A stretch of 64,000 nt of DNA. Source: Candidatus Nealsonbacteria bacterium. GTDB lineage: Bacteria > Patescibacteriota > Minisyncoccia > Minisyncoccales > JANBVM01. Shown one piece after another: positions 53,446 through 60,198 of the stretch. The stretch spans positions 128,776 through 192,775 of the forward strand of contig CP179889.1 in assembly GCA_047456315.1 (NCBI GenBank). The letters are read 5' to 3'. The first letter of the stretch is position 1. Each line of letters begins with the position of its first letter. The position numbers were made by a program, and so were the translations under genes. The notes under the pieces were generated by a model that saw only the letters and a program-made list of their open reading frames with translations, made no database searches and was not told the DNA's origin.

Positions 53446-53529
53446 GCCCAGGTGATGAAATTGGTAAACATGCCACCTTGAGGTGGTGGTGGGGGCAACT
53501 CCTTGTGGGTTCGAGTCCCACTCTGGGCA
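53446..53529 (+). tRNA. tRNA-Leu (anticodon GAG)
   Basis: Acceptor GCCCAGG/TCTGGGC (one G-U pair), anticodon arm CCACC-TTGAGGT-GGTGG, a long variable arm, T arm GTGGG-TTCGAGT-CCCAC. Confidence 0.88.
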
Positions 53530-53654: not shown

Positions 53655-54653
53655 CTAAACTCTATTTAATTTCTCCAAAATTCTCTTACAAACTTTTTTA
53701 TTAACAGGAGTTTCAATCCTTACTTCTTTTCCAAGCCTAACTACTCCTCCATTGTAATAATCAATTTCATCTAAATCTTTTAATTTTCCCGTTCTTCCTT
53801 TGCTAATAATATTAGCTAAAACATTTCTAAAAACTACTAGAACAAATTCAGGCATTAAAGAAAATAAAGAAGATAATAATTTAACTGGATAATTTGAAAA
53901 ATTAAGAAATTTGCCGTTAGATTTTTCAACAACTTCAATATATTCTTTTAAAGCTCTTAATTCCTCCTTAAATATTTCCTTATTCTTAAAACCATCTTTA
54001 ACTGATAGATTATGCGAAGCGCTTGCCATTCCAATTAAATTTAAAAATAACTTTGAGAATTCTAAATTTTTTGTATGTTTTTGAGGAAACTCTTTAACCT
54101 TAAACCCAGCCTTTCTGAAAATTTCAATAAGTCCTTTAATGTCTGTTTGGCCCTGCGCTTTTGAAATAGCAAGCCGTATTGGCAAAGAATATTTAATGTA
54201 TGTGTTATTATTTTTCTTTTGGTCTATTGGATTAAATAAAACACACCTGATTATTTTAATTTTACTTGCTTGTTCTTTAAATATTTCTTCAAGAGCTTTT
54301 TTTGAATCTTCTAATGCCTTTATACCATTTTGAGAAAGGAAAAGATCAGGTATTTTTTTACCTTTAAATTTCTCAAAATAGTATTTTATTACAGGAGCAA
54401 CTGGGTTCTTTGTTGCTAGAAAAATAATGTCTGGAGTTAAGTCTGCTTTAAAATCAGTATCTTTTATAACTTTAACATTAAACAATTCAGGCTTTTTATC
54501 TTTTTTTTGAACAAAGAGCCCTTTTTGTTTTATTGTTTCTATATCTGTTTCCTTTCCCACACCTAAAACATTAGCAAAGTTCTCTAGTTCATGGGCAAAC
54601 ATTGTTCCTGTTCTTCCCCCAATACCAATAATAATTATTTTAATCTTGTTCAT
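53655..54653 (-). CDS. NAD(P)-binding oxidoreductase, ketopantoate-reductase (ApbA/PanE)-like
   Basis: 332 aa with an N-terminal Rossmann 'KIIIIGIGGRTG'. The family call rests only on length and layout. Confidence 0.35.
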   Translation of the reverse strand: MNKIKIIIIGIGGRTGTMFAHELENFANVLGVGKETDIETIKQKGLFVQKKDKKPELFNVKVIKDTDFKADLTPDIIFLATKNPVAPVIKYYFEKFKGKKIPDLFLSQNGIKALEDSKKALEEIFKEQASKIKIIRCVLFNPIDQKKNNNTYIKYSLPIRLAISKAQGQTDIKGLIEIFRKAGFKVKEFPQKHTKNLEFSKLFLNLIGMASASHNLSVKDGFKNKEIFKEELRALKEYIEVVEKSNGKFLNFSNYPVKLLSSLFSLMPEFVLVVFRNVLANIISKGRTGKLKDLDEIDYYNGGVVRLGKEVRIETPVNKKVCKRILEKLNRV

Positions 54654-54749
54654 GCTTAATAAAGTATATCATTGTTTTAACTCTAAATAAATTGATTTTA
54701 GCTTGATTTTATGATAAATTTAAACATGTTTTTGTTTGATATTACCACT

Positions 54750-54835
54750 GGAGAGGTGCGTCGAACTGGCAAGACACAGGTTTCGAAAACCTGAGCCTAT
54801 TTATAGGTTTGTGGGTTCGAGTCCCACCCTCTCCG
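54750..54835 (+). tRNA. tRNA-Ser (anticodon CGA)
   Basis: Acceptor GGAGAGG/CCTCTCC, anticodon arm CAGGT-TTCGAAA-ACCTG, a long variable arm, T arm GTGGG-TTCGAGT-CCCAC. Confidence 0.9.
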
Positions 54836-54885
54836 CTCTGGTTTATTTAAATCAAATATATACTATATAATCAATTTAACAATAT

Positions 54886-55278
54886 ATGCCAATGTTTGAA
54901 TTATTTAAAAAAAGTGATGAAATAGATCCAAAGGATTTACAAGAGGTTATTTCTCAGCTTAAGAATCTAAAAAAAGATTTTAGAAAAATGTCAATTGAAT
55001 TAAATGGCCTTAAAAAAGAGTCTAAGTTTTCGGTTCAAAAAACGGGTATTGTAAGATTTAATCCCTTTAAGAATCTGGGGGGAAACCAGAGCTTTTCTGT
55101 CGCGCTTTTAGATGGTAACAATGATGGAGTGGTAATTACCAGTTTTTACAGTAAAGATGGAAACAGAGTATTTGGAAAGCCAATCAAAAAAGGACGCTCT
55201 TCGCACGTTTTGTCTGAAGAGGAAAAAAGGGCAATAGAAAAAGCTAAGAAAACTCGGATTAACAGAAAAGAAATTTAA
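54886..55278 (+). CDS. DUF4446-family protein
   Basis: 130 aa with 'VRFNPFKNLGGNQSFSVALLDGNNDGVVITSFYSKDGNRVFGKPI', the signature I associate with DUF4446. Confidence 0.6.
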   Translation: MPMFELFKKSDEIDPKDLQEVISQLKNLKKDFRKMSIELNGLKKESKFSVQKTGIVRFNPFKNLGGNQSFSVALLDGNNDGVVITSFYSKDGNRVFGKPIKKGRSSHVLSEEEKRAIEKAKKTRINRKEI

Positions 55279-56769
55279 ATGACAAATACTAAAGACAAAT
55301 TAACAAGCCGGCCTCCGGTTGTGGTAGTTTTGGGTCATATTGATAGTGGGAAAACAAGCCTGCTTGATAAAATAAGGGAGGCAAAGGTTGCTGAAAAAGA
55401 ATCTGGTGGAATTACCCAGCATATTGGCGCTTATCAGCTTGAAAAAGATAATAAGAAAATCACTTTTATTGATACTCCTGGACACGAAGCTTTTTCTCAA
55501 ATGAGGTCTCGTGGAGCAAAAACTGCTGATATTGCTATTTTGGTGATAGACAGCACTAAAGGAGTACAGATTCAAACCAAAGAAGCTATTGAGCATATTA
55601 AAAAGTCCCAGGTTTTTCCTATAGTTGCTTTTAATAAAATTGACAGGCCAGAAGCTGATCCTCAAAAAGCTAAGGGGCAATTAGAAAAACAAGGCATTGC
55701 TGTTGAGTCAGTAGGAGGAAAGATTCCTTCTGTTAATGTTTCAGCAAAAACAGGACAGGGCGTTGAAGAACTTTTAGAACTCATTCTTTTGATTGCTGAT
55801 ATGGAGAATTTCCAGGCTGATATTTCAAAGCCAGCTCAAGGAGTGGTTATTGAATCTTATTTGGATAATAAAAGAGGGCCAATAGCAACTTTGATTTTAA
55901 ACGAAGGTGTATTAAAACCAAATGATATTATTGGCACTTTTTCAGCTTTCGGGAAATTAAAAGGACTGGAGAATTTCAAAGGTGAGCAGATTTCTCAAGC
56001 CCTGCCCTCTGATCCAGTAGTTGTTTTAGGATTTAACCAGGCGCCAAAAGTTGGAGAAACATTTACACTTTTTAATGATTTGGAGCTGGCAAAAGCTCAG
56101 ATTAAAACAGCCAAGCAGAAAAGCATTGAAAAAGAAGCAGAGCTTCAAGAGGGACAAAAAATGCTTAATTTGATTATCAAAAGTGATGTTTTGGGTTCTA
56201 TTGAGGCAATAGAAAATGTTTTAGATGGTCTTCCTCAGGAAAAAGTTGTTTTAAAAATTATTAAATCAGGGGTAGGACAAATTAATGAAAATGATATTAA
56301 AATGGCAAAAAGCTCAAAAGCATTAGTGCTGGGCTTTAGAATTAAGGCAAATAATACTGCTCATAAATTAGCTGAAAGAGAAAATATTAGAATAATGAAT
56401 TTTGAAATAATTTATGATTTGGTTGAGGAAATCAGAAAATACATGGAAAAAATATTAGAGCCTGAAGTTGTAAGGATTAATTTGGGAAAACTTAAAGTGC
56501 TGGTGAGCTTTTGGAGTGAGAAAAAGCGCCAGATTGTTGGTGGAAGAATGACTGAAGGAGAAATTAAAAAAAGCGTTTTAATTGAAGTAACAAGAGATGG
56601 TGAAGTTATTGACCAGGGCAGATTAATAAATCTTCAAAAGAATAAAAAAGATATTGAAAAAGCATCCAAAGGAAATGAGGTGGGAATACTTTATGAAGGG
56701 GAAAAAAAGATTGAAAAAGGCGATGAATTAATAATATTTGTTAAAGAAAGAAGAAAGGGAGAATTGTGA
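55279..56769 (+). CDS. infB: Translation initiation factor IF-2 (short form, no N-terminal extension)
   Basis: 496 aa with the GTPase motifs G1 'GHIDSGKTS', 'DTPGHEAF' and 'NKID'. The C-terminal domains are present. Followed by rbfA. Confidence 0.93.
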   Translation: MTNTKDKLTSRPPVVVVLGHIDSGKTSLLDKIREAKVAEKESGGITQHIGAYQLEKDNKKITFIDTPGHEAFSQMRSRGAKTADIAILVIDSTKGVQIQTKEAIEHIKKSQVFPIVAFNKIDRPEADPQKAKGQLEKQGIAVESVGGKIPSVNVSAKTGQGVEELLELILLIADMENFQADISKPAQGVVIESYLDNKRGPIATLILNEGVLKPNDIIGTFSAFGKLKGLENFKGEQISQALPSDPVVVLGFNQAPKVGETFTLFNDLELAKAQIKTAKQKSIEKEAELQEGQKMLNLIIKSDVLGSIEAIENVLDGLPQEKVVLKIIKSGVGQINENDIKMAKSSKALVLGFRIKANNTAHKLAERENIRIMNFEIIYDLVEEIRKYMEKILEPEVVRINLGKLKVLVSFWSEKKRQIVGGRMTEGEIKKSVLIEVTRDGEVIDQGRLINLQKNKKDIEKASKGNEVGILYEGEKKIEKGDELIIFVKERRKGEL

Positions 56770-56770
56770 G

Positions 56771-57115
56771 ATGTCTAAACGCATAAAAAGAGTTAATCAA
56801 TTAATTAAACAAACTCTTTCCAAGCTTCTTTTAAAAGAGCTGGATTTTGAAAAAGATATTTTAATCACACTCACCAGGGTGGAAACTGCTTCTGATTTAA
56901 GCAAAGCCAGTGTTTTCATCAGCGTAATGCCAGAAGAAAAAATTGAGCTGGTTCTGCGTTTTTTAAACAGAAATATCTATCATCTACAGCAAAAAATCAA
57001 TAAGAAGTTAGTAATGAAGCGGGTTCCTAAGATTATATTTAGAACAGAAACAAAAACAGCTGAAGCTGATAGAGTTGAAAAGCTGTTAAATGAGTTGAAA
57101 AATGAAGAAAAATGA
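56771..57115 (+). CDS. rbfA: Ribosome-binding factor A
   Basis: An 'MSKRIKRVNQLIKQ' start (ATG 56771) and 'ITLTRVETASDLSKASVFISV'. Located after infB. Confidence 0.88.
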   Translation: MSKRIKRVNQLIKQTLSKLLLKELDFEKDILITLTRVETASDLSKASVFISVMPEEKIELVLRFLNRNIYHLQQKINKKLVMKRVPKIIFRTETKTAEADRVEKLLNELKNEEK

Positions 57116-57129
57116 GATAAAATAAGATA

Positions 57130-57960
57130 ATGTATCTTGATCCTCGAGGAGGTTCAAATAGGCGAAAATTTAACGCCGATTTCTTTAAAAGATGGTCAAA
57201 TAAAATGGCCTATGTTTTAGGTTTTTTATATGCTGATGGCAATATAACCAATGCTGTAAAATCTTCAAGGACTCAGTATATAAAATTTTCGAATAATGAT
57301 AAAGAAATATTGAGAAAGATTAAACTGGCTTTAGAATCAGAACATGCTATTCGTTCACGCCCACCCCATCTATCATTACATAAAAATGGTAAATTTTATC
57401 AAAGCTCAGAGTCTTTTTCCCTTAGGATAGGAAGTAAAAAAATGTTTAATGATTTATTAAAGTTTGGATTAACACCAAGTAAGTCAAAAACTATGAGACT
57501 TCCACACATTCCTTCTAAGTATTTACCTCATTTTGTTAGGGGCTATTTTGATGGTGATGGAACTATATACATAGGGCCCAAAGAAAAGATCATAAAAGCT
57601 AATGTGTCTTTTTCTAGCGGAGGTGAAAAATTCTTAAAATCTCTTTCCAATAGTTTAACAAAAAACCTCGGTGTTAAAAAAAGAAAAACTTATAAAGGTA
57701 AAAGAGATTTTCAAATAAGGTATTATACAAAAGAAAGTATAGACATGTTTAAATTTATGTATAATAATTCAAATAGCTTGTTCCTTCAAAGAAAATTTGA
57801 TATTTTTAAGCAATTTTTTGATATAAGGAACAAATGGCTAGACAAAAAAGTTGTTAAAATTTTAAATCAGAATACAAAAATATGGCCAGGTACCCAAACA
57901 GCTAGGGAACGCTCTGCAAAAGCGTCACACGCGGGTGCAAATCCCGCCCTGGTCTCATAA
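57130..57960 (+). CDS. Free-standing double-motif LAGLIDADG homing endonuclease; 3' end reads through tRNA-Cys
   Basis: Two LAGLIDADG motifs, 'MAYVLGFLYADGNI' and 'HFVRGYFDGDGTIY'. The last 25 codons (57884-57958) are the tRNA-Cys gene, and the stop TAA at 57958-57960 falls just after the tRNA. Confidence 0.8.
   Translation: MYLDPRGGSNRRKFNADFFKRWSNKMAYVLGFLYADGNITNAVKSSRTQYIKFSNNDKEILRKIKLALESEHAIRSRPPHLSLHKNGKFYQSSESFSLRIGSKKMFNDLLKFGLTPSKSKTMRLPHIPSKYLPHFVRGYFDGDGTIYIGPKEKIIKANVSFSSGGEKFLKSLSNSLTKNLGVKKRKTYKGKRDFQIRYYTKESIDMFKFMYNNSNSLFLQRKFDIFKQFFDIRNKWLDKKVVKILNQNTKIWPGTQTARERSAKASHAGANPALVS
57884..57955 (+). tRNA. tRNA-Cys (anticodon GCA)
   Basis: Acceptor GGCCAGG/CCTGGTC (one G-U pair), anticodon arm ACGCT-CTGCAAA-AGCGT, T arm GCGGG-TGCAAAT-CCCGC, discriminator T (U73, typical of Cys). 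Confidence 0.85.
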
Positions 57961-57962
57961 TC

Positions 57963-58045
57963 GCCGCGGTGTTGGAATGGTATACAATGCGGACTTAAAA
58001 TCCGTTGGGAATTATCCCGTGTGGGTTCGAATCCCACCCGCGGCA
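57963..58045 (+). tRNA. tRNA-Leu (anticodon TAA)
   Basis: Acceptor GCCGCGG/CCGCGGC, anticodon arm GCGGA-CTTAAAA-TCCGT, a long variable arm, T arm GTGGG-TTCGAAT-CCCAC. Confidence 0.9.
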
Positions 58046-58055
58046 CTTAGAAACT

Positions 58056-58086
58056 AAAAACCACTGCATTAAACAGCGGTTTTTTG
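58056..58086. terminator. Putative bidirectional terminator
   Basis: ACCACTG-cattaaa-CAGCGGT (one mismatch) with an A-run and T-run, between the tRNAs (+) and the 3D-domain gene (-). Confidence 0.5.
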
Positions 58087-58106
58087 AATAGTTTTTAAAT
58101 TCTTTA

Positions 58107-58616
58107 TTATCCCTCCAATACCTCAATAGTAGTTCTTTTTGCTCCAAAACTCAGAGCCTGCCAATAATCAGCAAGCCAGACATCAACATGATAATATCCT
58201 TTTTTTCTGTTCATTCTGTCTTCAACAACAAAGATTTTATCTCCATAAACTTCTGGAATTCTGATTCTTGTTCCAAAAGGTAATAGATTATTAGCTACAA
58301 TTCCATCTCTAACATAAGAACCAGAAGCAGTAATAAAAGGAGTGTCATCTGTTTGAGATTCTGTGCTTGAATAAGCAGTAATAATTACTGGTAATTCTCT
58401 TACAACCCTTGGAGGAGGATTGGTTGGATTAGAAAGAGAACTTAAAGTATTTCCCTGGATAAATGAAAAACTGGGCATTGCATCAAGAGAAATGTCCTTT
58501 CTCTGTCCTATCTGATAATACAGCTGGGACAGGGCTGAAAATAGAATTAAAAATATTGTTATTTTAAGCGCCTCAATTGCAAGGCGTTTGTTATACTTGA
58601 TAGTTGAATTTGTCAT
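58107..58616 (-). CDS. 3D-domain (MltA-like fold) cell-wall-associated protein
   Basis: 169 aa with an N-terminal TM and 'ITAYSSTESQTDDTPFITASGSYVRDGIVANNLLPFGTRIRIP...VVEDRMN' (3D domain). Confidence 0.75.
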   Translation of the reverse strand: MTNSTIKYNKRLAIEALKITIFLILFSALSQLYYQIGQRKDISLDAMPSFSFIQGNTLSSLSNPTNPPPRVVRELPVIITAYSSTESQTDDTPFITASGSYVRDGIVANNLLPFGTRIRIPEVYGDKIFVVEDRMNRKKGYYHVDVWLADYWQALSFGAKRTTIEVLEG

Positions 58617-58735
58617 ATTAAAACCCCTATAAAATCAAGGGGTTTTAGCATAATAGCTGTTTCAAAAACCAGTGTCAAGGGTCAAAAAAAACGCTTCAAA
58701 AAGCAAGTTTTAATGGTTGTGAATAAGTGAAAATG

Positions 58736-58808
58736 AGCGAGAGACGGGGATCGAACCCGCGACCTTCTCGTTGGCAACGAGACGTTCTACCAGCTGAACT
58801 ACTCCCGC
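58736..58808 (-). tRNA. tRNA-Gly (anticodon GCC)
   Basis: Acceptor GCGGGAG/CTCTCGC, anticodon arm TCTCG-TTGCCAA-CGAGA, T arm GCGGG-TTCGATC-CCCGT. Confidence 0.9.
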
Positions 58809-58811
58809 ATG

Positions 58812-58883
58812 TGCCGTGGAGTGGAATTGAACCACCTACCCTTTCTTTTTCAGAGAAATGCTCTACCAATGAGCTACCACGGC
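58812..58883 (-). tRNA. tRNA-Phe (anticodon GAA)
   Basis: Acceptor GCCGTGG/CCACGGC, anticodon arm TTTCT-CTGAAAA-AGAAA, T arm GGTGG-TTCAATT-CCACT. Confidence 0.9.
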
Positions 58884-58891
58884 TTATTTCG

Positions 58892-58965
58892 TGGACCCAG
58901 AGGGACTCGAACCCTCGACCTTCGGTATGCCATACCGACACTCTAACCAACTGAGCTATGGGCCC
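58892..58965 (-). tRNA. tRNA-Ala (anticodon GGC)
   Basis: Acceptor GGGCCCA/TGGGTCC with the G3:U70 pair, anticodon arm TCGGT-ATGGCAT-ACCGA, T arm GAGGG-TTCGAGT-CCCTC. Confidence 0.9.
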
Positions 58966-58975
58966 CTTCTTTTTG

Positions 58976-59047
58976 TGTCCCCGACAGGAGTCGAACCTGT
59001 ATCAATGACTTAGGAGGTCATGATTCTGTCCATTGAACTACGGGGAC
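58976..59047 (-). tRNA. tRNA-Arg (anticodon CCT)
   Basis: Acceptor GTCCCCG/CGGGGAC, anticodon arm ATGAC-CTCCTAA-GTCAT. Confidence 0.88.
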
Positions 59048-59090
59048 AAAGGGGACGAATTCTTATGCACTTTTTTAAGAAGATAAATAA

Positions 59091-59119
59091 ATTCTATCAG
59101 CTTTTACTCTTGTTGACAA
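59091..59119 (-). promoter_or_regulatory. Putative promoter of the 4-tRNA cluster
   Basis: Minus strand: TTGTCA (59119-59114), 17-nt spacer, TAGAAT (59096-59091). It overlaps a plus-strand TTGACA at 59113-59118 that faces htrA. Confidence 0.4.
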
Positions 59120-59172
59120 TATAAGTTAATGATAAAATTTAAAAAGATAATCAATATAAAACAATCAAAAAG

Positions 59173-60198
59173 ATGCAAAAATCACCAATTGTTGAAATTG
59201 CGAAAAAGGTTAATCCAGCTGTTATAACTATTGTTGTTTCCAAAGACCTGCCAAAGATTGAAGGTTTTTATTTTTTCCCTTTTGGAGGAAGACAGTTTAT
59301 TGTTCCCCGGGTTGAAAAAAATAAGAAAGAAGAAACAAAAATAGGGGGCGGTTCAGGGTTCATTGTTTCCAAAGATGGCTACGTTTTAACGTGCAACCAC
59401 GTGGTCAAGGATCCAACAGCCAACTATACTGTTATTGTTGAGCCCACTAAAAAATACTCAGCAAAGGTTTTAGCAAAAGACCCATTAATTGATGTTGCTA
59501 TTTTAAAAATTAAAGACCATTCCCTTCCTTTCATAGAACTGGGTGATTCGTCAAAGATTGAATTAGGAGAATCAGTAATAGCAGTAGGAAATCCTTTAGG
59601 AGAATTTGAAGATACAATATCAGCAGGCATTATTTCAGGGTTAAGCAGAAAGATTAAAGCCTACCAAGGCCCAGCACTCAGAGCAACTAGTTTAAGAGGA
59701 TTAATTCAGACCGATGCTGCTATTAATCCAGGCAACAGTGGTGGTCCTTTAGTAAATATGGAAGGAAAAGCAATAGGTGTTAATACAGCAATGGTTATGG
59801 GAGCTCAGAATATTGGTTTTGCCATTCCAATTGATTATGCCAAAAAGGATTTAGAAGAAGTAATGAAGTTTGGGAAAATTAAAAAACCATTTTTAGGAGT
59901 AAGGTATTTCATTTTAAATAAACAAGTAGCTCAAGCCAACAAGCTTCCAATTGATTACGGAGCTTTAATTGTCAGGGAAAACTTAGGGGAAAGTGCGATT
60001 ATTAAAAACTCTCCTGCCGATAAAGCAGGGCTGAAAGAATATGACATTATTCTGGAATGCAATGGTAAAAAAATTAATGAAGAATCTCCTTTGGCTGACT
60101 TACTTCAAGAACAAAACATTGGACAAGAAATAACATTGAAAGTTTTAAGAGAAGGGAAAAAAATAAACATTAAAATAAAGCTTGGAGAAAGAAAATAA
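59173..60198 (+). CDS. htrA: HtrA/DegP-family serine protease with one PDZ domain
   Basis: 341 aa with 'GSGFIVSKDGYVLTCNHV' (His), 'DVAILKI' (Asp), 'TDAAINPGNSGGPL' (Ser) and a C-terminal PDZ. Confidence 0.9.
   Translation: MQKSPIVEIAKKVNPAVITIVVSKDLPKIEGFYFFPFGGRQFIVPRVEKNKKEETKIGGGSGFIVSKDGYVLTCNHVVKDPTANYTVIVEPTKKYSAKVLAKDPLIDVAILKIKDHSLPFIELGDSSKIELGESVIAVGNPLGEFEDTISAGIISGLSRKIKAYQGPALRATSLRGLIQTDAAINPGNSGGPLVNMEGKAIGVNTAMVMGAQNIGFAIPIDYAKKDLEEVMKFGKIKKPFLGVRYFILNKQVAQANKLPIDYGALIVRENLGESAIIKNSPADKAGLKEYDIILECNGKKINEESPLADLLQEQNIGQEITLKVLREGKKINIKIKLGERK

Follow-up and report, generated by a model that had tools for sequence, protein, structure and literature searches.

Between rbfA and a tRNA-Cys gene of a Candidatus Nealsonbacteria bacterium lies an open reading frame (ORF) for a LAGLIDADG endonuclease that meets no stop codon before the tRNA and is read straight through it. 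What kind of gene is this, and why does it stand against that particular tRNA? The DNA analysed was a stretch of 64,000 nucleotides (nt) from GenBank assembly GCA_047456315.1 (contig CP179889.1, positions 128,776 to 192,775 of the forward strand), referred to here as the window. The explanation we favour, with a probability of about 0.62, is that the ORF is a free-standing homing endonuclease gene which moves together with its own tRNA allele. Judging from the sequences compared, it belongs to a large family of Patescibacteria (candidate phyla radiation, CPR) whose clades are each bound to a single tRNA gene, namely Cys(GCA), Met/Asp or Leu(GAG).

The ORF occupies 57130..57960 of the + strand, starts with ATG and codes for 276 amino acids, ending at a TAA stop in 57958-57960. 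Its final 25 residues, WPGTQTARERSAKASHAGANPALVS, are translated from tRNA-Cys, which is entered in the frame where the anticodon GCA becomes an Ala codon. ARAGORN placed this tRNA at 57884-57956, as one of 19 tRNA genes within the window, and Rfam placed it at 57884-57955 (49.3 bits vs a threshold of 29). It has a normal cloverleaf, the anticodon GCA and the discriminator U73, and its G+C content is 62% in a window of 33.7% G+C. The ORF map, ARAGORN, Rfam and Pfam together confirmed the first-pass annotation, made from the letters of the window, of an ORF with two LAGLIDADG motifs that runs through the whole of tRNA-Cys. The tight packing behind rbfA (identified by Pfam PF02033, E=2.8e-18) was likewise found, but the spacer between the rbfA TGA (57113-57115) and the endonuclease ATG measured 14 nt and not the 15 nt given at first.

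The possibility, raised at the outset, that a sequencing error hides a stop codon upstream of 57884 was checked and refuted. Loci and contigs used for comparison are designated here by L numbers; one of them, contig L161 (Logan DRR463594), is an independent assembly with 99.2% identity to the window across 4.66 kb and a single differing base in the ORF, at 57775. An assembly or sequencing error was ruled out because L161 independently repeats the same stop-less junction. No group I or group II intron or other Rfam family was detected at E<=1 within 54000-60000, and with regard to an intein the ORF contained no Pfam domain besides LAGLIDADG_3 and no Hint splicing domains flanked it; the Rfam and Pfam results bear out the earlier view that the gene stands free, outside any intron or intein. 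Furthermore, rbfA and tRNA-Cys are both complete, one on each side of the endonuclease gene, which is not the placement of an intron-encoded enzyme. As to an integrase-type island at the tRNA, the insert is a single ORF with no integrase and no duplicated tRNA sequence, and the direct or inverted repeats looked for around it (target duplication or att-like) were only short AT-rich chance matches.

The protein matched the Pfam family LAGLIDADG_3 (PF14528, E=7.8e-14) in two stretches. Among 5.8 billion proteins searched, 468 relatives were found, with labels that point to Patescibacteria of the Parcubacteria type (Nealsonbacteria, Staskawiczbacteria), and 120 of them, showing 42-63% identity to the query, were aligned. 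The residues D36 and G37 (...GFLYADG) as well as D143 and G144 (...GYFDGDG), the catalytic acid of each motif and the glycine behind it, were invariant across the alignment. AlphaFold gave a two-domain model with a predicted local distance difference test score (pLDDT) of 90.3 and a predicted template modelling score of 0.87; the pLDDT was >90 for residues ~11-250 and fell to ~50 over the tRNA-encoded residues 251-276. The best Foldseek match was I-Tsp061I (2dch, E=1.9e-9), followed by an intein endonuclease, the bI3 maturase, I-SceI, I-AniI and I-OnuI, and the probability was 1.00 for I-Tsp061I, I-SceI, I-AniI and I-OnuI (alpha-beta-beta-alpha-beta-beta-alpha fold, twice). A sequence-only search of solved structures returned chance matches only (thermonuclease, E ~0.4). 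The ORF is a genuine gene for a monomeric, two-domain LAGLIDADG homing endonuclease, which is probably active.

The site was sampled independently of the endonuclease by using infB as the query, which gave 80 metagenomic loci, 67 of them reaching tRNA-Cys. All but one of these 67 were empty, and only L092 had the endonuclease gene. The ten closest relatives (infB 76-89% identical) showed the order infB, rbfA, tRNA-Cys and tRNA-Leu, in every case without the endonuclease gene and with the rbfA stop ~6 nt 5' of tRNA-Cys. Such sporadic presence together with clean empty sites is a hallmark of a mobile endonuclease gene, and an essential domesticated role is therefore disfavoured. One of two meanings that the first reading had given to the arrangement, a site of homing on the 5' flank of the tRNA gene, is strongly backed by these empty rbfA/tRNA-Cys sites (66/67) and by the recurrence of the gene in many lineages. 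The comparison of rbfA-tRNA-Cys spacers that had been recommended to define the insertion site did provide empty sites, but it did not give the insertion point to the nucleotide, because two alignments of the AT-rich spacer were about equally good. The best statement is that the insertion would lie between the -10 box and a point ~15 nt 5' of tRNA-Cys.

A LAGLIDADG remnant in two pieces, in different frames, was also seen just 3' of tRNA-Leu(TAA) at L151:5620-6287. It looks like a decaying copy, a stage through which homing endonuclease genes are expected to pass.

The linkage to tRNA genes extends to the whole family. A scan of one genome per species yielded at least 512 loci, and the best 80 were used for the linkage counts. 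A tRNA gene was present within ~250 nt in 73/80 loci, and two of the other seven were cut by contig ends. In 42/80, tRNA-Cys stood immediately 3' in the same orientation, with tRNA-Leu(TAA) next in most of them; in 7/80, mainly from Microgenomates, tRNA-Cys was 45-175 nt upstream or overlapped the ORF start, on the same strand or divergent. In 17/80 it was tRNA-Asp that stood immediately 3', usually with tRNA-Met(CAT) upstream, and paralogues with 25-34% identity were found directly 5' of tRNA-Leu(GAG) in L085, L112, L113 and L117. Relatives from viral contigs (28-38% identity), which were taken as a control, were next to a tRNA in just 1/80 loci and had no tRNA anywhere in the locus in 77/80, so that tRNA adjacency was 73/80 in Patescibacteria vs 1/80 in viruses (p=9e-36). 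A neighbour-joining tree of the proteins split cleanly into Leu(GAG), Met/Asp and Cys clades, and the Cys clade was subdivided by arrangement. The upstream neighbour, on the other hand, was variable (infB-rbfA in ~20 loci and different genes elsewhere), and the tRNA is therefore the constant partner. A phage vector was also considered; it is not indicated, the viral relatives being numerous but without tRNA linkage.

Several details of the other clades were recorded. The Leu(GAG) paralogues were located at L085:1433-2140, at ~300-1020 of L112 and L113, and at L117:8210-7454 (minus strand), and that of L085 reads into tRNA-Leu(GAG), ending in ...LGLNGRVLELVDSLN before its stop. The window's own tRNA-Leu(GAG), at 53446, has no endonuclease gene beside it. 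The sister clade situated between tRNA-Met(CAT) and tRNA-Asp(GTC) was found in L042-L080 (e.g. L053, L059, L070 and L074), and ~10/17 of its ORFs overlapped the start of tRNA-Asp; some members had tRNA-Met upstream with no tRNA-Asp detected downstream and no Rfam intron there.

If the gene moves with its own tRNA allele, what do the alleles look like? Only two close pairs of loci with and without the gene were available for this comparison, since the nearest relatives of L092, L001, L002, L003, L005, L112 and L117 were too distant (~70% DNA identity). When the window was compared with L081/L082, seven neighbouring tRNAs were 94-100% identical, tRNA-Leu(TAA) was 86% identical and tRNA-Cys only 68.5%. 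Sliding identity against L081 was 60-70% from 57101 to ~57996 and 80-97% in the flanks. Besides the endonuclease gene and tRNA-Cys, this divergent tract takes in the -10 region on one side and the 5' half of tRNA-Leu on the other, and we infer that it was imported or co-converted as a segment. The closest allele to the window tRNA-Cys (85%) was that of L001, which carries the gene and has an infB only 61% identical. In the second pair, L085 and L084, which is the clearest case, the infB-rbfA DNA was 93% identical and the flanks of the site were 88-97% identical; L085:1392-2200, which comprises the endonuclease gene and tRNA-Leu(GAG), substitutes for L084:2056-2253. The two tRNA-Leu(GAG) genes were ~50-70% identical and the next tRNA (Val) was 97-99% identical. 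With two pairs, a coincidence by chance of a divergent tRNA with the endonuclease gene has a probability of roughly 4%. The tRNA-Cys gene appears, on these alignments, to belong to the mobile segment.

Elsewhere in L084 and L085, tRNA-Val, Cys, Gly and Arg were 98-100% identical and tRNA-Ser(CGA), Leu(TAA) and Ala(GGC) only 72-77%. This mosaic could be due to endonuclease sweeps in the past, to recombination or to selection by toxins that target tRNAs.

A possible target signal was looked for in an alignment of tRNA-Cys alleles, 8 of the window clade from loci with the gene and 66 from loci without it. A compensated non-G:C pair at 10:25 was present in 5/8 of the former vs 3/66 of the latter (p=1.7e-4 for each position, uncorrected and with phylogeny ignored). 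Columns 10 and 25 ranked at the top, followed by the D-loop insertion column (length) and then by the pair 5:68. When further homologues were included, with position 10 deduced from their protein tails, a pyrimidine at this tRNA position was counted in 7/12 alleles with the gene vs 3/66 without it. The changed positions retain the cloverleaf and alter the DNA of the tRNA's 5' third, which lies closest to the gene; such alleles would look like those expected to resist cutting. The window tRNA-Cys has two further peculiarities, a T-loop UGCAAAU in which G replaces the near-universal U55, and a G2-U71 wobble. This T-loop was tried as a marker of gene-carrying alleles and rejected, because it was found in 19/44 alleles with the gene vs 24/66 without it.

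We propose that the enzyme would cut endonuclease-less alleles in or beside the tRNA-Cys gene, and that repair templated by a module-carrying donor would bring in the endonuclease gene and, with it, its divergent, structurally intact tRNA allele. The linked tRNA allele, which presumably resists cleavage, would thereby replace the resident tRNA. The captured tRNA-Cys promoter would drive transcription of the endonuclease and, where the stop codon lies in the tRNA, RNase P processing of the co-transcript would leave stop-less endonuclease mRNAs and lower the level of the enzyme, likely as a side effect. Such a mechanism would illustrate a way for a selfish nuclease to attack an RNA gene that is essential and has no intron, namely by bringing along a substitute copy. 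It would also offer a reason why tRNA alleles turn over rapidly in these reduced genomes, and it would imply hundreds of natural meganucleases whose likely tRNA-gene targets could be read from empty vs occupied alleles.

A more far-reaching version, which we put forward only tentatively and regard as doubtful, is that these genes act as natural 'cleave-and-replace' drives directed at essential tRNA genes: each clade would cut the ordinary allele and carry a recoded, cut-resistant allele fused at its 3' side. The logic of the mechanism proposed above is that of the synthetic 'cleave and rescue' drives, in which an engineered Cas9 in insects cuts an essential gene and a recoded, cut-resistant copy of that gene is linked to it; for the locus studied here, the same logic is suggested by the patterns of tRNA alleles. 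Repeated sweeps and gene loss would then explain why tRNA alleles can be 65-80% identical among ~93% identical genomes, and why tRNAs show unusual yet functional features, C10:G25 and the UGCAAAU T-loop among them. Placed between promoter and tRNA, and with its stop codon within the latter, the gene would be hard to delete and would limit its own expression.

The missing stop codon, on which the first-pass annotation had laid its emphasis, is the least important part of the locus. Many database homologues end in translated tRNA-Cys (e.g. ...RERSAKPFYxGANPxxAS), and complete read-through in the frame with the anticodon as Ala was found in 22/120 homologues. Other C-termini among the 120 were '...LAR' or '...MAT', whose stop codon is U8-A9-G10 of the tRNA, '...LAxYPSS', which stops in the D-loop, and '...G(H/R)V(A/S)K', which stops at ~+18, or else the stop codon stood a few nt ahead of the tRNA; all three frames relative to the tRNA were represented. 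In the 42 loci with tRNA-Cys directly 3', the stop codon ended at -13 to +22 nt of tRNA position 1, with five ORFs extending beyond, and the largest spacer between endonuclease and tRNA-Cys was 13 nt. The stop codon was inside tRNA-Cys in 30/42 of the endonuclease genes and 1-13 nt ahead of it in 12/42. In contrast, it was inside in 0/43 host genes at the same site (p=1.3e-13), these genes (rbfA, or a DHH-family phosphoesterase) always stopping 3-28 nt 5' of the tRNA.

In the loci compared, the overlap with the tRNA is a hallmark of this endonuclease family, and the tail does not seem to be under selection as protein; its conservation extends only as far as the tRNA sequence dictates. The read-through and the absence of an upstream stop look like a by-product of tight packing, because all three frames occur, the stops vary and the tail is predicted to be disordered. 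For the same reasons (pLDDT ~50 over the tail), the idea of the missing stop as a designed feature was left unsupported. Read-through alone is unremarkable when compared with chance, because tRNA-Cys is GC-rich in an AT-rich genome and the Ala-anticodon frame stays open in many homologues; it is the repeated placement beside a tRNA that exceeds chance, as does the position of the stop codon within the tRNA (30/42 vs 0/43). The non-stop mRNA that RNase P cleavage had been expected to leave is a plausible consequence, though not a required one, because 12/42 members stop before the tRNA. The arrangement recalls the mitochondrial 'tRNA punctuation', in which mRNAs end at tRNA processing sites and polyadenylation completes the stop codon: here too a coding region abuts a tRNA without spacer, so that tRNA processing would set the 3' end of the mRNA, but the completion of the stop codon by polyadenylation has no known counterpart for the window locus. 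As a practical warning, gene callers yield chimaeric proteins with tRNA-encoded tails at such loci, as in 22/120 of the database homologues. These tails sometimes include translated tRNA-Leu too, and public protein lengths are inflated by 25-80 residues.

The position of the gene relative to the promoter was examined by comparison with the closest empty sites, which carry, within the 3' end of rbfA, TTGAAA-N17-TA(A/G)TAT and then a leader of 22 nt before tRNA-Cys. In the window, a -35 TTGAAA at 57095-57100 is followed by N17, TAAAAT at 57118-57123, 6 nt and then the endonuclease ATG. The arrangement TTGAAA-N17-TAAAAT-N6-ATG is common to the window, L001 and L162, and L092 is near-identical (N8). 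Only ~16/43 loci had the geometry of -10, 6 nt and start codon at a score of at least 9/12, and we do not claim it for the family as a whole. No Shine-Dalgarno sequence was visible in the 14-nt spacer between rbfA and the ATG. From these comparisons we infer that the endonuclease gene sits between the tRNA-Cys promoter, located in the 3' end of rbfA, and tRNA-Cys itself. A common transcript would then run through the gene, tRNA-Cys and tRNA-Leu as far as a terminator-like hairpin, and the endonuclease mRNA is possibly leaderless. A second promoter within the 3' end of the ORF is also possible.

The distant 'MGIKY' clade (L006-L048) has a conserved block TTGCAGTATA...TTACCAC(T/C)TATAAT-N6-ATG/GTG, ~45 nt upstream of the ORF start, which reads as a putative strong promoter whose expected transcription start coincides with the start codon. 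The sequence TTGCAGTAT was considered as a cassette-specific element of this clade and discarded, since it occurred 158 times in 1.1 Mb of loci and also before other genes; it is found at window 59114 as well, and is probably an ordinary promoter element.

Other explanations were weighed against the same data. It is unlikely, but deserves attention, that the overlap is regulatory, the stop codon having been placed deliberately in or beyond the tRNA so that RNase P leaves a non-stop message, rescue by transfer-messenger RNA follows, the protein is degraded and expression stays low; this could hold alongside the movement of the gene with its tRNA allele. The stop codons inside the tRNA in 30/42 Cys-linked and ~10/17 Asp-linked members vs 0/43 host genes speak for it, and an apparently shared tRNA promoter in front of a 14-nt spacer without Shine-Dalgarno sequence would call for a translational brake. 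However, 12/42 members stop 1-13 nt ahead of the tRNA, the junctions occur in all three frames with differing stop positions and a tail predicted to be disordered, and a short AT-rich spacer followed by a GC-rich tRNA gives roughly the same mixture without selection. Somewhat less probable is a stranded passenger that formerly homed and is now inactive or neutral, kept because its place between a promoter and an essential tRNA makes deletion difficult, with the divergent alleles arising from ordinary recombination. The mosaic of tRNA alleles among close relatives even where the endonuclease gene is missing would agree with this, as would endonuclease clades that broadly follow host taxa. Against it, 120 homologues down to 42% identity have invariant catalytic residues and a well-conserved fold, which points to selection on the enzyme; no frameshifted copy was seen at the tRNA-Cys site in 42 loci, the sole degraded copy (L151) being elsewhere; and the divergent tract coincides with the endonuclease gene in both close pairs.

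A domesticated host protein with a role linked to tRNA-Cys, for instance as an RNA chaperone resembling maturases or in regulating the tRNA operon, is quite improbable. Its absence from the ten closest relatives and from 66/67 infB-sampled loci is difficult to reconcile with such a role, despite a gene position that is stable over deep lineages. LAGLIDADG maturases do exist, and the bI3 maturase was among the structural matches, but maturases often lose the LAGLIDADG catalytic acids and these are retained here. The unusual T-loop of the linked tRNA-Cys might also have pointed to a special function, yet it is as common without the gene (24/66) as with it (19/44). Finally, there is hardly any probability left for an artefact or another kind of element, be it a stop or frameshift that went unseen, an ORF open by chance, a piece of an intron or intein, or a gene brought by an integrase island at the tRNA. 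ORFs that cross a tRNA are usually annotation noise, and several spurious ones cross other tRNAs of the window; this one, in contrast, is identical at the junction in an independent assembly and has strong family and structure matches. The insert measures only ~0.75-0.9 kb, and the searches described above gave no intron RNA at E<=1, no intein domain, no integrase and no real flanking repeats.

Some observations weigh against a homing endonuclease that travels with its tRNA allele. In L084/L085, the tRNA genes Ser-CGA, Leu-TAA and Ala-GGC differ by 23-28% with no adjacent endonuclease gene (~3/15 comparisons); given such divergent alleles without the endonuclease, tRNA-Cys could likewise have been replaced through general recombination at tRNA loci, which is a real alternative for the divergent tract. 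L002, L092 and L162 carry the gene and yet keep G10:C25, so the proposed resistance change is not universal. The ~15 nt that precede tRNA-Cys resemble the leader of the empty site and look retained, in which case the insertion would lie upstream of the tRNA and not at its edge. Endonuclease clades broadly track host groups, as in the Moranbacteria clade, and much of the inheritance is therefore vertical. Homing would, moreover, require that two alleles meet in one cell of these bacteria.

Free-standing LAGLIDADG homing endonucleases are uncommon in bacteria, and full-text literature searches returned no description of a family with clades each locked to one tRNA gene. The nearest known system is that of phage T4, where SegB, a free-standing GIY-YIG homing endonuclease inside a tRNA cluster, recognises a T-arm motif of tRNA and drives the inheritance of its own gene and that of the tRNA genes around it, with recipient markers being lost (PMC2330249). 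Free-standing endonucleases of T-even phages, including MobE, have been associated with 'intronless homing' (PMC2790892). As with SegB, the gene described here is free-standing among tRNA genes, and its divergent tracts match the traces expected of co-conversion; its position is intergenic and its linkage is to a conserved gene, the tRNA, and cleavage of that gene in genomes lacking the endonuclease would make it an enzyme of the Seg/Mob type. SegB and MobE, however, are GIY-YIG or HNH enzymes, while the enzyme here belongs to the LAGLIDADG family, and the setting is that of cellular chromosomes of Patescibacteria instead of phage co-infection. Unlike SegB, each clade is tied to a single tRNA with the ORF physically fused to it, and the linked tRNA is presumably the only copy in the cell.

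LAGLIDADG genes are also known from rRNA introns and insertions of CPR bacteria (PMC11270868). The enzyme of the window shares with these, and with the archaeal I-Tsp061I and I-DmoI, the two-domain monomeric fold, the Pfam family and the association with a highly conserved RNA gene, and with the CPR enzymes also the phylum-level hosts. The rRNA enzymes, however, lie inside the RNA gene, within an insertion that is self-splicing or removed in another way, whereas the window gene is located next to the RNA gene and seems to come with a copy that replaces it. The word tRNA had 0 occurrences in that paper (PMC11270868). A survey of elements that interrupt the anticodon loop of tRNAs (PMC13011429) belongs to the same tRNA-centred biology of mobile elements and includes the same phylum; most of its elements are without endonuclease genes, and the LAGLIDADG genes in tRNA introns are those of tRNA-Arg in Cyanobacteriota. 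Free-standing LAGLIDADG genes flanking tRNAs are not described in PMC13011429 or PMC11270868.

Table 1. Coordinates in the window of the endonuclease gene, its neighbours and the associated signals
Feature	Position	Strand	Evidence and remarks
infB (short IF-2, 496 aa)	55279..56769	+	Pfam GTP_EFTU, IF-2
rbfA (114 aa)	56771..57115	+	Pfam PF02033; 3' end ~8 codons shorter than in relatives without the endonuclease gene
Promoter-like site TTGAAA-N17-TAAAAT	57095..57123	+	Consensus scan, 10/12 matches
Conserved endonuclease core, residues 1-251	57130..57882	+	Pfam, 468 homologues, AlphaFold, Foldseek
LAGLIDADG motif 1, MAYVLGFLYADG	57205..57240	+	D36, G37 invariant in 120 homologues
LAGLIDADG motif 2, HFVRGYFDGDG	57529..57561	+	D143, G144 invariant in 120 homologues
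tRNA-encoded tail, 25 codons and TAA	57883..57960	+	Predicted disordered; no protein-level conservation
tRNA-Cys(GCA)	57884..57956	+	ARAGORN, Rfam; compensated C10:G25 D-stem pair, UGCAAAU T-loop
tRNA-Leu(TAA)	57963..58046	+	ARAGORN, Rfam; 5' half within the divergent tract
Terminator-like hairpin and T-run	58063..58090 (hairpin 58063-58080)	+	Would close the putative promoter-endonuclease-tRNA-Cys-tRNA-Leu unit
Tract divergent from L081	57101..57996	n/a	Sliding identity, tRNA identity table

A few observations concern individual loci. The metagenome-assembled genome DATDVS01 has two contigs (L010 and L011), each with endonuclease, tRNA-Cys, tRNA-Leu and tRNA-Lys and with differing tRNA-Cys sequences; they could represent a strain mixture or two modules within one genome. 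Eight contigs (L002, L009, L017, L018, L026, L027, L029 and L057) end a few hundred bases past the endonuclease and tRNA-Cys, and the assembly could have broken there because part of the population has the gene and part has not. A DHH-family (NrnA-like) phosphoesterase gene was found between rbfA and tRNA-Cys at L095:5785-6756, L101:5821-6795 and L122:6019-6795, and in L095 and L101 it stops 6 nt 5' of tRNA-Cys.

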